Of a stretch of DNA of 64,000 nt, positions 43,233-57,113 are shown in pieces. The translations under genes and the position numbers were made by a program. The notes beneath the pieces were generated by a model that was given only the letters and a program-made list of their open reading frames with translations, ran no database searches and was not told the origin of the DNA. Within the stretch, counting starts at the first letter, position 1; each line of letters opens with the position of its first letter. The DNA is from Escherichia coli O127:H6 str. E2348/69 (GTDB taxonomy: Bacteria > Pseudomonadota > Gammaproteobacteria > Enterobacterales > Enterobacteriaceae). Location: the NCBI RefSeq assembly GCF_000026545.1, contig NC_011601.1; one strand, 5' to 3'.

Positions 43233-43568
43233 GCCATTATGTCTCCTGCCGTAATCCGATGCTTTTGTCGGTCGCTTTTGTTCATTTTTTTGGTAAAGAA
43301 AATGTTATACATTTGTTGCGTATCATTATGCAACCTTAACCATGAATTTAGTTAGCAGGAAAATGGTTATTAAGGAGCTTAAGGATAGATTTCTGGTAAG
43401 GAGGAAGTATGGAAGTGGGCAATTTGGGGAAGACGTATTCGCTGGCGTATGTGGAGGAATAAGCTGCCTCTACCGTGCTTGCGTAGGCCGATGTGATGGA
43501 CACCTCCCGCCTTACGGCATCAATGTGCCAGACTGAGGCGTACCCAGTTCCCAGGTGGAGGTGTCCGT

Positions 43569-44686
43569 CATGAATATTAAGCGTATTGGTCTCGATCTTG
43601 CAAAAACGTTTTTCAGATCCACGGCGTTGATCACCATGAAAAAGTGGTACTGCGAAAAAGGCTGCGCCGTCCCCACATGATGACGTTTTTCTCCGGGCTT
43701 TCTCCCTGCCTCATCGGCATCGAAGCCTGTGGCTCTTCTCATTACTGGGCCCGCGAGCTCACCCGTATGGGCCATACCGTGCGCATTATTCCACCGAAAC
43801 TTGTCAAACCTTATCTCAAAGGTAACAAAAACGACGCCAATGATACAGCCGCCATCTGTGGGGCCATCAGCAGGCCCGGCATGCGATTTGTTGCCCTCAA
43901 ATCGGAAGCCCAGCAGACGCTGCAGGCAGAGCACCGGGTCCGGGTCCGGGTCCGGGTCCGGGTCCGGGTCCGGGTCCGGGTCCGGGTCCGGGTCCGGGTC
44001 CGGGTCCGGGTCCGGGTCCGGGTCCGGGTCCGGGTCCGGGCAAGAATCATCCGCGAGCGAACGGCACTGTGCAATGAAATCCGGGGGCTGTTAAGTGAGT
44101 TTGGTCTGGTGCTGCCCGTGGGGATAAGGCATGTGCGTAAAATCCTGCCGGAAATCCTGTCACAACAGGAGCAGTGGAATGACCGCTTCATCCGTTTGTT
44201 GTGCGAACTGTCAGAGGAAATGCAGATGCTAGATGAACGCATATCGCGTTATGACCGCCGTCCTCATGAGGCTGCAAGGGATGATATCCGTATTAAACGG
44301 CTGATGGAAATAGAGAGTTTTGGCCCGATAGTAGCGAGCGCTTTGTAGCCGCCGTAGGGGATGCGAAGCAATTTAAAAACGGGTGGGAAATGTCAGCCTT
44401 TATTGGGCTGGTTCCGCGACAGCATTCCAGCGGCGGAAAAGAGCGGTTGGGTCATATAAGCAAACGGGGCGACAGTTACCAGAGAACGCTGATAATCCAC
44501 GGTCCCCCCGCAGTACTGAGATTCAGCGCCGGAAAAACAGACAGGCGCAGTCGCTGGCTACAGTCGGTGGCAGAAAGACGCAATAACAATATTGCCGTGG
44601 TGGCGCTGGCAAATAAAAACATCAGGATAGCGTAGGCGATATTAAATCGTGGTGAAGAGTACTGTGGGGTGCCGAATGCGGCGTAA
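43569..44686 (+). pseudogene. IS110-family (DEDD) transposase/recombinase pseudogene: -1 frameshift at A5 run 43601-43605, in-frame 102 bp hexamer expansion, 1 bp deletion near 44345, in-frame TAG at 44633
   Basis: Joined frames read MNIKRIGLDLAK|NVFQIHGVDHHEKVVLRKRLRRPHMMTFFSGLSPCLIGIEACGSSHYWARELTRMGHTVRIIPPKLVKPYLKGNKNDANDTAA...QAEH(RV)17RARIIRERTAL...ESFGPIVASAL|VAAVGDAKQFKNGWEMSAFIGLVPRQHSSGGKERLGHISKRGDSYQRTLIIHG...ANKNIRIA*AILNRGEEY; N- and C-terminal motifs are characteristic of IS110-family recombinases (ORF track 43644..44348 and 44390..44635). Confidence 0.8.
43934..44040. repeat. Perfect hexanucleotide tandem repeat (CCGGGT)x17.8, 107 bp, in frame within the IS110-family tnp pseudogene
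   Basis: Directly visible; encodes (RV)17 in the tnp frame, (GS)n and (PG)n in the other plus frames, (TR)n on the minus strand (see ORF track 43644, 43729, 43811). Confidence 0.98.
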
Positions 44687-44965
44687 ACAGCACTGACCAC
44701 CTTGTAAGTAAACGAGTAATAAACCTGCCGTAAGCGTACAAAGTTATAAAAAACTGATGTGTAACAGGTAAGACCGACATCTGATAAATCCGACCTTATC
44801 CATGGCTCCCTGTAAAGCAAAGCCGGCAGGCCGAAAGGAAACAGATGCGCAGATAACATCATGGCCGGGAACGACGGTACCGTAAGAGAGGCCGGATATA
44901 CGAATGCAACTTACTCCCGTTACACAGATGAAAAATAACTTGCGCAACGGGAGTTGTCCATATAT

Positions 44966-44996
44966 GGATAAGACGTGCCAGCGTCGCATCCGGCAT
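44966..44996. repeat. REP element next to the rrnG terminator
   Basis: Reverse complement gccggatgcgacgctggcacgtcttatcc matches the REP consensus. Confidence 0.7.
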
Positions 44997-45013
44997 TTAT
45001 TCCGCACCAACGC

Positions 45014-45039
45014 AAAAAAGCCCAGTCTTCCGACTGGGC
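45014..45039 (-). terminator. rrnG operon terminator (gcccagtc-ttcc-gactgggc, U-run on minus strand)
   Basis: Hairpin with A6 on the plus strand, immediately downstream of the 5S rRNA on the minus strand. Confidence 0.85.
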
Positions 45040-45054
45040 CTTTCGCTAAATTTG

Positions 45055-45174
45055 ATGCCTGGCAGTTCCCTACTCTCGCATGGGGAGACCCCACACTACC
45101 ATCGGCGCTACGGCGTTTCACTTCTGAGTTCGGCATGGGGTCAGGTGGGACCACCGCGCTAAGGCCGCCAGGCA
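45055..45174 (-). rRNA. rrfG: 5S ribosomal RNA (120 nt)
   Basis: Reverse complement reads TGCCTGGCGGCCTTAGCGCGGTGGTCCCACCTGACCCCATGCCGAACTCAGAAGTGAAACGCCGTAGCGCCGATGGTAGTGTGGGGTCTCCCCATGCGAGAGTAGGGAACTGCCAGGCAT; operon named rrnG by synteny (kgtP/clpB flanks). Confidence 0.97.
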
Positions 45175-45272
45175 AATTCTGTTTTATCAACACGTCACGT
45201 TATGACCTGTCGATTTAATCTGTATCAGGCTGAAAATCTTCTCTCAATCCGCCAAAACATCTTCGGCGTTGT

Positions 45273-48176
<2,904 letters not shown>

Positions 48177-48369
48177 TCACAACCCGAAGATGTTTCTTGC
48201 GATTCATCATCGTGCTGCGAAAATTTGAGAGACTCACGAACAACTCTCGTTGTTCAGTGTTTCAATTTTCAGCTTGATCCAGATTTTTAAAGAGCAAATA
48301 TCTCAAACATCACCCGAAGATGAGTTTTGAGATATTAAGGCAGGTGACTTTCACTCACAAACCAGCAAG

Positions 48370-48445
48370 TGGCGTCCCCTAGGGGATTCGAACCCCTGTT
48401 ACCGCCGTGAAAGGGCGGTGTCCTGGGCCTCTAGACGAAGGGGAC
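48370..48445 (-). tRNA. gltW: tRNA-Glu (UUC) in the 16S-23S spacer
   Basis: Reverse complement GTCCCCTTCGTCTAGAGGCCCAGGACACCGCCCTTTCACGGCGGTAACAGGGGTTCGAATCCCCTAGGGGACGCCA (76 nt, anticodon TTC in the CTTTCAC loop). Confidence 0.95.
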
Positions 48446-48530
48446 GTATCAGTCTGCTTCGCAAGACGCCTTGCTTTTCACTTTCTATCAGACAATCTGT
48501 GTGAGCACTGCAAAGTACGCTTCTTTAAGG

Positions 48531-50072
<1,542 letters not shown>

Positions 50073-50253
50073 AAAAGTTTGATGCTCAAAGAATTAAACT
50101 TCGTAATGAATTACGTGTTCACTCCTGAGACTTGGTATTCATTTTTCGTCTTGCGACGTTAAGAATCTGTATCTTCGAGCGCCCACACAGATTGTCTGAT
50201 AAATTGTTAAAGAGCAGTGCCGCTTCGCTTTTTCTCAGCGGCGCGGGGTGTAC

Positions 50254-50281
50254 ATAATACACTTTCCCGCTACAGAGTCAA
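50254..50281 (-). promoter_or_regulatory. rrn P2 promoter (-35 TTGACT, 16 bp spacer, -10 TATTAT)
   Basis: Reverse complement ttgactctgtagcgggaaagtgtattat. Confidence 0.8.
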
Positions 50282-50371
50282 GCATTTTTTTGCTTTTCTC
50301 TGTTGAGATTCTCAGGAGAACCCCGCTGACCCGGCGGCGTGCTTGCCGTTGTTCCGTGTCAGTGGTGGCGC

Positions 50372-50399
50372 ATTATAGGGAGTTATTCCGGCCTGACAA
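50372..50399 (-). promoter_or_regulatory. rrn P1 promoter (-35 TTGTCA, 16 bp spacer, -10 TATAAT, GC-rich discriminator GCGCCACC); AT-rich UP/Fis region extends to about 50470
   Basis: Reverse complement cttgtcaggccggaataactccctataatgcgccaccact is the classic rrn P1 core. Confidence 0.85.
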
Positions 50400-50485
50400 G
50401 CGAAAAATATAAAAACTTTATCGTTCGCTCATTTTTCAGGCAAAATATCTTAAATATAGTCTTTCCCGTCTAACTTATAGACAAA

Positions 50486-50510
50486 AACGAGCCCCAAAGG
50501 GCTCGTTTTA
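50486..50510 (-). terminator. Intrinsic terminator of clpB (aaaacgagccc-caaa-gggctcgtttt)
   Basis: Hairpin with flanking A/T runs immediately after the clpB stop. Confidence 0.8.
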
Positions 50511-50513
50511 TCA

Positions 50514-53087
50514 TTACTGGACGGCGACAATCCGGTCTTCATTAACTTCCAGGCGAATAACTTTACCCGGAACCAATTCACCTGACAGTATTTGCTGTGC
50601 CAACGGGTTTTCGATCTGCTGCTGGATAGCACGTTTCAGAGGACGTGCACCATAGACCGGATCGTAACCGTTCTCGCTCAGCAGTTTCAGCGCCTCGTCA
50701 GAAATGTGGATTTCATAACCACGTTCTTCCAGACGTTTGTACAGACGTTTCAACTGAATCTGCGCAATCGACGCAATGTGCTGTTCACCCAGCGGATGGA
50801 AGACCACCACTTCATCGATACGGTTAATGAATTCCGGACGGAAGTTATGGCTTACCACACCGAGCACCAGCTCTTTCATGTGCGCATAATCCAGTTCACC
50901 GAAGCGTTCCTGAATCAAATCGGAACCGAGGTTAGAGGTCATAATGACAACCGTATTACGGAAGTCGACCGTTCTCCCCTGTCCGTCAGTCAGACGCCCA
51001 TCATCCAGTACCTGCAACAGAATGTTGAAGACATCCGGATGCGCTTTTTCAACTTCATCCAGCAGAATGACGGAATACGGACGACGACGCACCGCTTCGG
51101 TCAGGTAGCCACCTTCTTCATAACCGACATATCCCGGAGGCGCACCAACCAGACGAGACACCGAGTGTTTCTCCATAAACTCGGACATATCGATACGGAC
51201 CATCGCCTCGTCGCTATCAAACATAAAGTTCGCTAGCGCCTTACAAAGCTCAGTTTTCCCCACACCGGTTGGGCCGAGGAACAGGAATGAACCAATCGGG
51301 CGATTTGGATCCGCCAGCCCCGCACGGCTACGACGAATAGCGTTAGATACCGCATCAACCGCTTCGTTCTGACCAATAACGCGATGGTGCAGTTCTTGCT
51401 CCATACGCAGCAGTTTTTCGCGCTCGCTTTCCATCATGCGAGAAACCGGAATCCCCGTCCAACGCGCCAGCACTTCAGCAATTTCGGCATCGGTCACTTT
51501 ATTACGCAACAGACGCATAGTTTTGCCTTCGAGCTGCGTTGCGGCTTCCAGTTGCTTTTCCAGTTCCGGGATTTTGCCGTATTGCAGTTCAGACATCCGC
51601 GCCAGGTCCCCCACACGGCGAGCCTGTTCAATAGCGATTTTCGCCTGTTCCAGTTCCGCTTTAATGGTCTGTGTACCAGAAAGCGATGCTTTCTCTGCTT
51701 TCCACTCTTCTTCTAACTCGGAGTACTGACGTTCTTTGTCGCTCAGTTCTTCGTTGAGCATATCCAGGCGTTTTTTACTGGCTTCATCAGACTCTTTCAT
51801 TAACGCCTGTTGTTCCAGTTTAAGCTGGATGATACGGCGATCGAGTCGGTCGAGTTCTTCTGGTTTTGAGTCAATCTGCATACGAATGCTGGATGCTGCT
51901 TCATCGATCAGGTCGATGGCTTTATCCGGCAGCTGACGGTCAGCAATGTAGCGATGAGACAACGTCGCCGCTGCAACAATTGCCGGGTCAGTAATTTGCA
52001 CATGGTGGTGCAACTCATAACGTTCTTTCAGGCCACGCAGAATAGCAATGGTATCTTCAACAGAAGGCTCGGCAACAAACACTTTCTGGAAACGACGTTC
52101 CAGCGCAGCATCTTTTTCGATGTACTGGCGATATTCGTCAAGCGTCGTGGCACCTACGCAGTGCAATTCACCACGCGCCAGTGCCGGTTTCAGCATGTTT
52201 CCGGCGTCCATTGCGCCATCGGCTTTACCCGCGCCGACCATGGTATGTAATTCGTCGATAAACAGGATGACGTTGCCTTCCTGTTTGGCAAGATCGTTAA
52301 GTACGCCTTTTAAACGTTCTTCAAACTCACCGCGATATTTCGCCCCAGCCACCAGCGCGCCCATATCCAGCGCCAGTACGCGGCGGCCTTTCAACCCTTC
52401 GGGCACTTCGCCGTTGATAATACGCTGCGCCAGACCTTCAACGATGGCAGTTTTACCGACGCCGGGTTCACCAATCAATACCGGGTTATTTTTAGTACGA
52501 CGTTGCAGCACCTGAATGGTACGGCGAATTTCTTCATCACGACCAATCACCGGATCAAGTTTGCCTTGTTCGGCTCGTTCGGTAAGGTCGATGGTATATT
52601 TTTTCAAAGCCTGACGTTGGTCTTCAGCACCCTGATCGTTCACGCTTTCACCTCCACGCATTTGTTCAATCGCTTGAGTAATGTTGGCGGTGGTCGCCCC
52701 TGCTGCTTTCAGGATGTCGGCCAGTGTGCCGCGAGACTCAAGTGCCGCCAGAACGAACAGTTCTGACGAGATAAAGTTATCACCACGTTTTTGCGCCAGC
52801 TTGTCGCAAAGATTAAGAACGCGCACCAGATCCTGTGATGGCTGGACATCACCACCAGTACCTTCAACCTGTGGTAAACGATTTAATGCCTGATTGATAT
52901 CTGTGCGCAACTGGCCAGCATTAATGCCAGCGGATGTTAATAAAGGACTAACCGAACCCCCTTCCTGATTCAGCAGGGCGCTCATTAAATGAAGTGGTTC
53001 GATGAATTGGTTGTCGTGCCCGAGTGCAAGTGATTGGGCATCGGCAAGAGCAAGCTGGAATTTATTAGTAAGACGATCCAGACGCAT
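50514..53087 (-). CDS. clpB: Disaggregase chaperone ClpB (857 aa)
   Basis: ORF track 50514..53099; two AAA+ modules with Walker A ([16 protein letters not shown]); start placed at [18 protein letters not shown] giving 857 aa. Confidence 0.97.
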
Positions 53088-53125
53088 AACTCCTCCCATA
53101 ACGGATCAAAGTTGCTACTGGAGAT

Positions 53126-53155
53126 TAAATGAGGTCATCCCTCAATTATTCAAGG
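53126..53155 (-). promoter_or_regulatory. Sigma-32 heat-shock promoter of clpB (-35 CTTGAA, -10 CCTCATTTA)
   Basis: Reverse complement ccttgaataattgagggatgacctcatttaatc matches sigma-32 consensus TTGAAA-N13-15-CCCCATnT. Confidence 0.75.
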
Positions 53156-53216
53156 TTATTGACCAGATTAATGTGAAAAGAAAATCACGCGTACCGGATC
53201 GTCTTGATTCTTTAGG

Positions 53217-53948
53217 TTATATCAGCCAAATGAAACTTGCCATACGACCGGTGGTCTTGTCGCGACGATAAGAGAAGAAAGTCTCATTTTCCGTATATGT
53301 ACAACGGTCACCGCCAAAAATTTGTTCAACACCAACGCTCGCCAGACGCTGCCGGGCAAGCTGATAAATATCCGCCAGATACTTATCACCATGCTGAATG
53401 AAAGCTGTACTCGCTTTGGCATCTACTGCCATAAACGCCTCGCGAACCTCCGCCCCCACTTCAAACGCGCGTGGACCAATTGCCGGCCCTAACCAGGCGA
53501 GAATATTTTCCGGATTATCAGCAAAACAGGAAACCGTCTCTTCCAACACGCCTGCGCACAGTCCACGCCAGCCTGCATGAGCGGCGGCGACCTCCGTTCC
53601 CGCACGATTGCAAAACAGCACGGGCAGGCAGTCGGCAGTCATCACTGCGCAAACCGTGCCAGGCGTATTGCTATAAGAGGCATCTGCTCGTTTTGAGGCA
53701 TAAGGTTCGCCAATAAGCTTAAGCACATCTTTGCCGTGTACCTGCTCAAGCCAGACCGGTTTAGAAGGCAAATTGCCCGCAGCAAAAAGTCGCTTGCGAT
53801 TCTCCTCAACGTGATCCGGGTTATCACCACAATGAGCGCCAAGGTTGAGAGAGTCGTAAGGCGGCAAGCTCACGCCGCCGATACGGGTAGAGCTACAGGC
53901 CGCAACACCTTTTGGCAGCGGCCACTGCGGGACAATCAGCTTACTCAT
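53217..53948 (-). CDS. yfiH: Laccase-domain (DUF152) purine nucleoside phosphorylase-type protein (243 aa)
   Basis: ORF track 53217..53948; start overlaps rluD stop by 4 bp. Confidence 0.9.
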   Translation of the reverse strand: MSKLIVPQWPLPKGVAACSSTRIGGVSLPPYDSLNLGAHCGDNPDHVEENRKRLFAAGNLPSKPVWLEQVHGKDVLKLIGEPYASKRADASYSNTPGTVCAVMTADCLPVLFCNRAGTEVAAAHAGWRGLCAGVLEETVSCFADNPENILAWLGPAIGPRAFEVGAEVREAFMAVDAKASTAFIQHGDKYLADIYQLARQRLASVGVEQIFGGDRCTYTENETFFSYRRDKTTGRMASFIWLI

Positions 53949-54925
53949 AACCAGTCCACTTCATCCTTATGCTCTTCGAAATCGGCGCGCATCTCCTCAA
54001 TCAGCTCCACCATATCTTGTGGAATAGGCGCATGCCATTCCATTTCGATGCCGGAGATCGGATGATAAAGACGCAGCATGGTTGCATGAAGCGCCTGACG
54101 GTCAAACTTACGTAGCGTGGAGATAAACGCTTCCGAAGCACCTTTTGGCGGACGCGGACGTCCACCATAAACCGGATCGCCCACCAGCGGATGAGTGATA
54201 TGGGCCATATGCACGCGGATCTGGTGCGTACGTCCAGTTTCCAGACGCAACCGCAGACGCGTGTGCACACGGAAGTGTTCCATGATGCGATAGTGAGTGA
54301 CCGCCGGTTTACCCATCGGATGCACCGCCATGTGAGTACGTTTGGTCGGGTGGCGGCTGATTGGTTCATCTACTGTACCGCCAGCGGTCATATGACCAAT
54401 TGCCACCGCTTCATACTCACGTGTAATTTCACGCCGTTGCAAAGATTCGACTAAACGCGTCTGAGCCGGAACGGTTTTTGCCACAACCATCAGGCCGGTG
54501 GTGTCTTTATCCAGACGATGGACGATGCCCGCACGCGGTACATCGGCAATGGGCGGATAGTAATGAAGCAACGCATTCAGTACCGTACCATCCGGGTTAC
54601 CCGCGCCAGGATGTACCACCAGGTCGCGTGGTTTATTAATGACGATGATATCTTCATCTTCATAGACGATATCCAGCGGGATATCCTGCGGTTCAAAACG
54701 CGCTTCTTCTTCAATCTCAGCGTTGATGGCCACCTGCTCGCCACCCAATACTTTTTCTTTCGGCTTATCACAAACTTTGCCGTTAACCAGCACGCGCTGG
54801 TCGAGGATCCATTCTTTTATTCGCGAACGTGAATAATCCGGGAACATTTCGGCCAAAGCCTGATCTAAGCGTTGACCGAGTTGGTTTTCGGACACCGTTG
54901 CAGTGAGCTGTACTCGTTGTGCCAT
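53945..54925 (-). CDS. rluD: 23S rRNA pseudouridine(1911/1915/1917) synthase (326 aa)
   Basis: ORF track 53945..54925; S4 domain and RluA-family catalytic motif HRLDKDTTG. Confidence 0.96.
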   Translation of the reverse strand: MAQRVQLTATVSENQLGQRLDQALAEMFPDYSRSRIKEWILDQRVLVNGKVCDKPKEKVLGGEQVAINAEIEEEARFEPQDIPLDIVYEDEDIIVINKPRDLVVHPGAGNPDGTVLNALLHYYPPIADVPRAGIVHRLDKDTTGLMVVAKTVPAQTRLVESLQRREITREYEAVAIGHMTAGGTVDEPISRHPTKRTHMAVHPMGKPAVTHYRIMEHFRVHTRLRLRLETGRTHQIRVHMAHITHPLVGDPVYGGRPRPPKGASEAFISTLRKFDRQALHATMLRLYHPISGIEMEWHAPIPQDMVELIEEMRADFEEHKDEVDWL

Positions 54926-55059
54926 ATATACTGCTTCTTCGTTTATCGTTGGGGTTTTACGGCTTTGCCGTTTAATATAGTGTGCTATTGTAGCTGGTCT
55001 TAACCGGGAGCAGGAACAGAGAATCTCCCGTATTACATTTTGAGGAAAGTCAAAACGTC

Positions 55060-55797
55060 ATGACGCGCATGAAATATCTGGTGGCAGCCGCCACACTAAG
55101 CCTGTTTTTGGCGGGTTGCTCGGGGTCAAAGGAAGAAGTACCTGATAATCCGCCAAATGAAATTTACGCGACTGCACAACAAAAGCTGCAGGACGGTAAC
55201 TGGAGACAGGCAATAACGCAACTGGAAGCGTTAGATAATCGCTATCCGTTTGGTCCGTATTCGCAGCAGGTGCAGCTGGATCTCATCTACGCCTACTATA
55301 AAAACGCCGATTTGCCGTTAGCACAGGCTGCCATCGATCGTTTTATTCGCCTTAACCCGACCCATCCGAATATCGATTATGTCATGTACATGCGTGGCCT
55401 GACCAATATGGCGCTGGATGACAGTGCGCTGCAAGGGTTCTTTGGCGTTGACCGTAGCGATCGCGATCCTCAACATGCACGAGCTGCGTTTAGTGACTTT
55501 TCCAAACTGGTGCGCGGCTATCCGAACAGTCAGTACACCACCGATGCCACCAAACGTCTGGTATTCCTGAAAGATCGTCTGGCGAAATATGAATACTCCG
55601 TGGCCGAGTATTATACAGAACGTGGTGCATGGGTTGCTGTCGTTAACCGCGTAGAAGGCATGTTGCGCGACTATCCGGATACCCAGGCTACGCGTGATGC
55701 GCTGCCGCTGATGGAAAATGCATACCGTCAGATGCAGATGAATGCGCAAGCTGAAAAAGTAGCGAAAATCATCGCCGCAAACAGCAGCAATACATAA
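55060..55797 (+). CDS. bamD: Outer-membrane protein assembly factor BamD (245 aa)
   Basis: ORF track 55060..55797; lipobox LFLAGCSG and TPR repeats. Confidence 0.96.
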
Positions 55798-55820
55798 CAG
55801 AAACCTGAAACACAAAACGG

Positions 55821-55833
55821 CAGCCTTGAGCTG
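55821..55833. repeat. Left 13 bp target-site duplication of the IS4 insertion (cagccttgagctg)
   Basis: Identical 13-mer at 56923-56935 immediately flanks the other IS4 end. Confidence 0.85.
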
Positions 55834-56922
55834 TAATGCCAGTCAGTTAAGGATCAGTTGACCGATCCAGTGGCTGTGTAAGAATCCGGAAACGCTCACT
55901 CGTTTCCGGATTTTTTTATGCTCATTGGGCAGGCACTTGATTTGGTATCCCGTTACGATTCTCTGCGTAACCCACTGACTTCTCTGGGGGATTACCTCGA
56001 CCCCGAACTCATCTCTCGTTGCCTTGCCGAATCAGGTACTGTAACGCTACGCAAGCGCCGTCTTCCCCTCGAAATGATGGTCTGGTGTATTGTTGGCATG
56101 GCGCTTGGGCGTAAAGAACCTCTTCACCAGATTGTGAATCGCCTGGACATCATGCTGCCGGGCAATCGCCCCTTCGTTGCCCCCAGTGCCGTTATTCAGG
56201 CCCGCCAGCGTCTGGGAAGTGAGGCTGTCCGCCGCGTGTTCACGAAAACAGCGCAGCTCTGGCATAACGCCACGCCGCATCCGCACTGGTGCGGCCTGAC
56301 CCTGCTGGCCATTGATGGTGTGTTCTGGCGCACACCGGATACACCAGAGAACGATGCAGCCTTCCCCCGCCAGACACATGCCGGGAACCCGGCGCTCTAT
56401 CCGCAGGTCAAAATGGTCTGCCAGATGGAACTGACTAGCCATCTGCTGACGTCGATGACGGACGCCATGCGCTTCCCCGGAGGAGAAATGGCGGATCTGT
56501 ACAGTCATCGCTGGGAAATCGAACTGGGATACAGGGAGATAAAACAGACGATGCAACTGAGCAGGCTGACGCTGAGAAGTAAAAGCCGGAGCTTGTGGAG
56601 CAAGAGCTGTGGGGTGTCTTACTGGCTTATAAACTGGTGAGATATCAGATGATTAAAATGGCGGAACATCTGAAAGGTTACTGGCCGAATCAACGGAGTT
56701 TCTCAGAATCATGCGGAATGGTGATGAGAATGCTGATGACATTGCAGGGCGCTGCACCGGGACGTATACCGGAGCTGATGCACGATCTTGCAAGTATGGG
56801 ACAACCAGTGAAATTACCGACAAGAAGGGAAAGGGCCTTCCCGAGAGTGGTAAAGGAGAGGCCCTGGAAATAACCCACAGCCCCGAAAAAGAGCCAGTCA
56901 GTTGCTTAACTGATCGGCATTA
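55834..56922 (+). mobile_element. IS4 derivative, 1089 bp, with 18 bp imperfect terminal inverted repeats (taatgccagtcagttaag / taatgccgatcagttaag) and an internal deletion
   Basis: Termini, 16/18 IR identity and 13 bp flanking direct repeat read directly. I recall canonical IS4 as 1426 bp, so this copy lacks about 337 bp. Confidence 0.85.
55918..56873 (+). pseudogene. IS4 transposase pseudogene: about 336 bp in-frame internal deletion (junction near 56441-56452) plus -1 frameshift in the A4 run at 56581-56584
   Basis: ORF track 55918..56640 (MLIGQALDLVSRYDSLRNPLTSLGDYLDPELISRCLAESG...QMELTSHLLT|SMTDAMRFPGGEM...) and 56595..56873 (MEQELWGVLLAYKLVRYQMIKMAEHLKGYWPNQ...) are the N- and C-terminal parts of an IS4-family DDE transposase in different frames; the central segment I recall from IS4 Tnp is absent. 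Confidence 0.8.
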
Positions 56923-56935
56923 CAGCCTTGAGCTG
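56923..56935. repeat. Right 13 bp target-site duplication of the IS4 insertion (cagccttgagctg), followed by the T-run of the split bamD terminator
   Basis: Identical to 55821-55833. Confidence 0.85.
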
Positions 56936-57113
56936 CCGTTTTTTATTCTGTTAGTTGTGAAACTGAAGCGATTTAGTCACTATCGATCTCATCAAATATG
57001 GCTCGCTTTGAGATATTCCTCAAGTAAAAAAACTCATCTTCCTGCGATTTCTCACAAAAAAGATTCGTTGACAAAAAGTGACAAAATTATGAGATTTCCA
57101 TCACACATTTTGA

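Follow-up and report, generated by a model that had tools for sequence, protein, structure and literature searches.

The 64-kb window analyzed here, the whole stretch of DNA under study, comes from Escherichia coli O127:H6 strain E2348/69 and extends from yphG to yfiB, with the rrnG operon lying inside it. It corresponds base for base (100% identity) to positions 2871214-2935213 of NZ_LT827011.1, the record of enteropathogenic E. coli (EPEC) O127:H6 E2348/69 'variety 2'. In this identical record, the RefSeq Prokaryotic Genome Annotation Pipeline (PGAP) flagged only three frameshifted pseudogenes within the window, namely, eamB (yfiK), an IS110-family transposase (tnp) gene, and an IS4-family transposase gene, the last two belonging to insertion sequences (IS). 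The remaining 53 coding sequences (CDS) had no frameshift flag. A first-pass annotation of the window had named the same frameshifted genes, and its inventory was complete because PGAP flags exactly these three. Four one-base frameshifts, all of them single-base deletions, were placed at the nucleotide level against intact alleles, and the question of whether they are real mutations or artefacts was judged by comparing assembled genomes.

The reference DNA for the IS110-type tnp consisted of two loci (L012 and L013) encoding the intact 340-amino-acid (aa) proteins P0001 and P0002; a paralogue near ugpB (87% identical) was dropped as a reference, being itself a pseudogene. The three genes and their four deletions are as follows.

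32910..33496, + strand: eamB (yfiK) pseudogene, 587 bp versus 588 bp when intact; 'frameshifted' according to PGAP in LT827011.1 and CP059840.2
33143..33146, + strand: G4 run in eamB, ancestral G5 (1-base deletion); window GGGC-GGGG-CGGC versus GGGCGGGGGCGGC in CFT073
43570..44686, + strand: IS110-type transposase pseudogene, a 340-aa protein after conceptual repair
43602..43606, + strand: A5 run, ancestral A6 (1-base deletion, first IS110-type frameshift); window GC-AAAAA-CG (GCAAAAACG) versus GCAAAAAATG in L012 and L013
44345, + strand: single G for an ancestral GG (1-base deletion, second IS110-type frameshift); window GCTTT-GTAGCC versus GCTCTGGTAGCT, and TTGTAGC versus CTGGTAGC in L012 and L013
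55834..56922, + strand: IS4 remnant of 1089 bp (1426 - 336 - 1) with the IS4 termini TAATGCC...GGCATTA
56581..56584, + strand: A4 run in the IS4 remnant, ancestral A5 (1-base deletion, frameshift); window AGT-AAAA-GCC (AGTAAAAGCC) versus AGTAAAAAGCC in intact IS4

At all four sites, the change in length was exactly one base and the flanks were unchanged. Alignment of the eamB gene of the window with the intact gene of CFT073 detected one gap and one single-nucleotide polymorphism (SNP). All four sites had been recognized in the first-pass annotation. Alignments to the intact alleles bore out the eamB run near position 33145, the G/GG site near 44345, and the IS4 run at 56581-56584, while the first IS110-type run, given as 43601-43605, was off by one and lies at 43602-43606.

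The sequence context of the deletions was compared with the distribution of mononucleotide runs. Runs of at least 5 bases accounted for 2.1% of the window and for 2.8 to 5.6% of the sequence in the three ancestral genes. An ancestral run of this length was present at three sites (A6, G5, and A5), and the probability that random placement of four deletions would put three or more of them within such runs was low (P = 2.9e-4). The enrichment in runs is real for these three sites. At position 44345 the ancestral sequence is only a GG dinucleotide, which carries no information and gives no support to a homopolymer pattern because 46% of the bases of the window lie in runs of at least 2. The proposal that every frameshift lay in a homopolymer or GC run was therefore sound for the A6, G5, and A5 sites and overstated for the plain GG.

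The IS110-type tnp gene carries two lesions in addition to its frameshifts.

44633..44635, + strand: TAG nonsense codon, TGG (Trp) in the intact relatives (alignment to L012 and L013)
43934..44040, + strand: (CCGGGT)17.8 array, detected by Tandem Repeats Finder (100% matches), inside the dead IS110-type tnp gene

The nonsense codon removes the final 17 codons of the transposase. The array is an in-frame 96-bp (32-codon) expansion of a 1.8-copy proto-repeat, and intact relatives have only CACCGGGTCCGGGCC / CCGGGTCCGGG. After conceptual repair, the protein was 94 to 95% identical to P0001 and P0002, was of equal length, and contained both the DEDD_Tnp_IS110 (PF01548; 1.2e-13) and Transposase_20 (PF02371; 9.8e-20) Pfam domains. 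The IS110-type element was present at this site in only seven genomes: the three E2348/69 assemblies, A25 (monkey, Mexico), DCE7 (pig, China), and two Korean human isolates, representing five strains from four countries. Over an aligned region of 4.7 kb, these seven carriers were distinguished by numerous flanking SNPs and by varying numbers of hexamer copies. Positions 43602-43606, 44345, and 44634 were invariant in 7/7 carrier assemblies, so that the TAG codon was common to all of them. As the carriers were identical at the lesions despite the SNP and copy number differences around them, the IS110-type lesions are inherited.

A second series of lesions was observed in the IS4 remnant, which has the following features.

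55821-55833 and 56923-56935: 13-bp target duplication CAGCCTTGAGCTG flanking IS4
56438..56451, + strand: junction of a 336-bp in-frame deletion, with one surviving copy of the 14-bp direct repeat GCCATCTGCTGACG

The remnant was ~98% identical to a full-length IS4 of the same site, and in many other genomes this bamD-raiA site holds a full-length IS4 whose insG gene is intact. Intact IS4 contains two GCCATCTGCTGACG copies 336 bp apart, and the window retains one. A specific 45-mer detected the A4 allele in 13 of 5426 complete genomes deriving from several projects, and the 336-bp deletion accompanied this allele in each of the A4 carriers that were aligned (5/5).

The frameshift finding of the first-pass annotation had left out the TAG codon, the 96-bp hexamer expansion, and the 336-bp IS4 deletion. 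Each IS gene thus contains several independent lesions, comprising two frameshifts, the TAG codon, and the expansion in the IS110-type gene and the 336-bp deletion and the frameshift in IS4, and this multiplicity is a signature of real, stepwise decay. As both genes have been inactivated several times over, single-base repair would not revive either of them.

Alleles of eamB were surveyed with a G4-specific 45-mer against the 5426 complete genomes. The G4 allele was detected in six genomes, consisting of all the E2348/69 assemblies (3/3), ER1709, the O6:H16 strain 2011EL-1370-2, and CREC-544. The three E2348/69 assemblies are unequal in size and in VNTR copy number. Among probe-matching assemblies, the run was G5 in 4883, G4 in 6, and G6 in 0. 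The G6 probe seeded on the wild-type G5 allele through its 28-base right flank, making its match count uninformative, and only the lack of matches of at least 99% identity, which were found in no genome, was used. Two relatives with the IS110-type insertion, A25 and Z1323HEC0423, have an intact eamB gene of 588 bp; the eamB deletion is therefore a recent event restricted to the E2348/69 lineage.

A limited number of differences was observed between the window and CP059840.2, a separate E2348/69 assembly of a different total size. Over 64 kb, CP059840.2 departed from the window only in a single additional hexamer copy and in two substitutions. The 250 runs of at least 5 bases were all concordant, without a single homopolymer disagreement between these two assemblies. 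Intact CDS contained 156 such runs, none of which was shifted, and no housekeeping gene was affected. The statement in the first-pass annotation that about 50 intact genes indicate good sequence quality was upheld by this concordance and by the 53 CDS left unflagged by PGAP.

These comparisons bear on the possibility that the indels are homopolymer-biased errors of sequencing or assembly, in which case the cell would carry all three genes in intact form. Mononucleotide runs, the classic context for such errors, are present at three of the four sites, and the G4 allele of eamB is found sporadically in three unrelated assemblies. Set against this are the concordance of the runs and the integrity of the housekeeping genes and the repetition of the lesions across strains, laboratories, and years, with 7 assemblies sharing the IS110-type lesions, 13 the IS4 lesion, and 3 the eamB deletion. 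The IS genes are, moreover, dead regardless of the frameshifts, since one has the TAG codon and the other the 336-bp deletion, and a background of 3 eamB G4 alleles in about 5420 genomes outside E2348/69 makes three coincident errors at this site implausible. An origin by error is highly improbable for the set as a whole, and a small residual chance attaches to eamB, for which a single strain supplied all the assemblies that serve as witnesses.

We concluded, with a probability of roughly 90%, that the four frameshifts are genuine single-base deletions which probably arose by replication slippage in genes that purifying selection presumably did little or nothing to maintain, the IS lesions being old and the eamB lesion recent. 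This is the reading that had been preferred in the first-pass annotation, namely, real slippage mutations in a well-sequenced region. Its accompanying caution that the pseudogene calls should stay provisional was largely removed by the sharing of lesions across genomes. The value of this result is chiefly one of quality control: the three calls can be used as real, and there was no sign of homopolymer-biased error in the assembly.

Several observations weigh against this conclusion. The change from GG to G at 44345 occurred without a real homopolymer, and slippage is a weak explanation there. Support for the eamB deletion comes from three assemblies of one strain, and two of these, LT827011.1 and LT903847.1, may derive from a single project, leaving effectively two independent witnesses. 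The sporadic occurrence of the eamB G4 allele in three unrelated complete genomes (ER1709, the enterotoxigenic E. coli [ETEC] O6:H16 strain, and CREC-544) indicated a site that is either prone to recurrent -1 mutation or else subject to occasional miscalls. One witness to the IS4 A4 allele, LR778152.1, is itself error prone: in this environmental isolate, the essential gene bamD carries a frameshift flag from PGAP, probably through an assembly error, which is a reason to down-weight the record. This is how an error-prone assembly looks, and the window is without any such sign.

A real eamB change from G5 to G4 could have arisen after the original isolation in 1969, during laboratory passage of E2348/69. 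Such an origin would fit the restriction of this allele, within its clade, to E2348/69 assemblies, with A25 and Z1323HEC0423 being intact. ER1709, a laboratory derivative of K-12, also has the G4 allele, and stocks of E2348/69 do diverge, as seen in their 17 or 18 hexamer copies. The G4 allele is, however, common to all three E2348/69 assemblies and hence predates the split of those stocks, and nothing that was found told a natural source apart from an early laboratory source. We regard a laboratory origin as unlikely. A further and still more doubtful suggestion is that the G5 tract may serve as a hotspot for repeated inactivation of eamB, at which loss of this cysteine/O-acetylserine exporter is possibly selected and not neutral and, separately, that (CCGGGT)n in the dead IS110-type gene may be a fast-evolving marker.

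The runs could also be functional switches, either directing programmed ribosomal frameshifting within the IS genes or acting as phase-variable contingency tracts. Some IS families (IS1 and IS3) employ A-rich slippery sites, and the lesions of the window lie in A and G runs. Programmed frameshifting is contradicted by the intact relatives, since the IS110-type gene is one uninterrupted 340-aa open reading frame (ORF) and IS4 insG likewise consists of one ORF; in neither gene do the intact relatives have a pair of overlapping ORFs connected through a slippery site. Phase variation would be expressed as two-way switching of tract length among close relatives, which was observed neither at the A runs, whose lengths were constant among all carriers, nor at eamB, where the probe-matching assemblies had 4883 G5, 6 G4, and 0 G6 alleles. 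The tracts are also short (4 to 6 bases), and the IS genes carry further inactivating lesions. A switching function is thus extremely improbable.

The positions of the deletions, their contexts, their sharing among assemblies, and their enrichment in runs were observed directly, and slippage and relaxed selection were inferred. The preferred reading of slippage under relaxed selection suggests the following course of events. Strand slippage in replication (Streisinger-type misalignment) would have generated the four single-base deletions in targets that were under little or no purifying selection, namely, two already dead IS copies and the gene for a dispensable exporter, eamB. The IS110/IS1111-type and IS4 lesions would be old, having been fixed before the carrier lineages diverged and subsequently passed on by vertical descent or recombination. 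Repeat-mediated misalignment of the same broad class would also account for the hexamer expansion and for the loss of 336 bp between the 14-bp repeats, and together the lesions would represent ordinary stepwise pseudogene decay. As in the Streisinger-type frameshifts known from E. coli indel hotspots, single-base changes with unchanged flanks were enriched in A or G runs of 5 or 6 ancestral bases. The window differs in that one event of the four occurred in a 2-base run and in that all four are deletions, with no insertion being seen. The biology is already well known, and nothing in these data changes the known mechanisms of mutation.

The structure of the IS110-type element was examined beyond its transposase gene, and two further features were defined.

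43489..44964, + strand: decayed IS110/IS1111-type insertion sequence, with approximate ends inferred from the subterminal inverted repeats
43496-43509 and 44948-44961: subterminal inverted repeats of 14 nt, 93% complementary

The element has ~80 bp upstream of the tnp ATG codon and ~280 bp downstream of the stop codon. IS1111-type elements are characterized by subterminal inverted repeats of ~11 to 13 bp and a long noncoding region downstream of tnp (PMC11187229), and the element of the window fits this layout in both its inverted repeats and its longer 3' noncoding region. In that article, LT903847.1 is cited for ISEc21 at another locus and not for the element described here. The insertion lies in a spacer between kgtP and rrfG that contains repetitive extragenic palindromic (REP) sequence, and the site is empty in CFT073. 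Elements of the IS110/IS1111 group that insert into REP sequences (such as IS621 and ISEc11) are similar in their possession of both transposase domains, in the subterminal inverted repeats, and in the REP-containing spacer. An Rfam scan of positions 43300-45250 detected no curated bridge or seek RNA family, the only hits being 5S rRNA and one sub-threshold chance match. REP-like sequence flanks the element on both sides (43440-43490 and 44965-45000), and the empty site of CFT073 has one REP. The left flank had no simple match to CFT073, and the insertion history appears to be more complex than a single clean insertion.

The IS4 remnant resembles other pseudogenised E. coli IS4 copies in its IS4 termini and 13-bp target duplication, the latter within the 11 to 13 bp expected of IS4. 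Both IS copies of the window are dead, IS4 through the loss of 336 bp and one base and the IS110-type copy through its pair of frameshifts, its stop codon, and a repeat insertion of 32 codons. The bamD-raiA site of A25 (NZ_CP028750.1, positions 3401300-3403400, equivalent to ~55800-57000 of the window) is empty and has no IS4, yet this strain does have the IS110-type insertion, near which its sequence is almost the same as that of E2348/69. The unequal distributions of the IS110-type and IS4 markers among strains suggest that this region has undergone recombination or is of mosaic ancestry. An intergenic T run at 56939-56944, immediately beyond the right IS4 duplication, was T6 in the window, T5 in 382634_2f, SC477, and Z1323PEC0014, and T7 both in Z1323HEC0423 and in strains whose IS4 is intact; these lengths may reflect either polymorphism or assembly error.

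Copy numbers of the (CCGGGT) hexamer in the seven assemblies were 6, 7, 8, 9, 17, 17, and 18, and two E2348/69 assemblies differed from each other (17 versus 18 copies). This array is a lineage-restricted variable-number tandem repeat (VNTR). It is similar to the hexanucleotide CVN loci of multiple-locus VNTR analysis (MLVA) in being a perfect 6-bp tandem array whose copy number varies among strains (6 to 18) and even between stocks, and it differs from them in being present only in the seven genomes with this IS copy and in lying inside a dead transposase gene. An identification with CVN014 was rejected, since CVN014 has been typed in ST131, ST648, and other lineages without this IS copy. The VNTR may help in the minor practical task of telling E2348/69 stocks and close relatives apart.

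The two substitutions in CP059840.2, at window positions 47241 and 49037, were located one in the 23S and one in the 16S rRNA gene of rrnG; they could stem from heterogeneity between rRNA operon copies, gene conversion, or assembly collapse.

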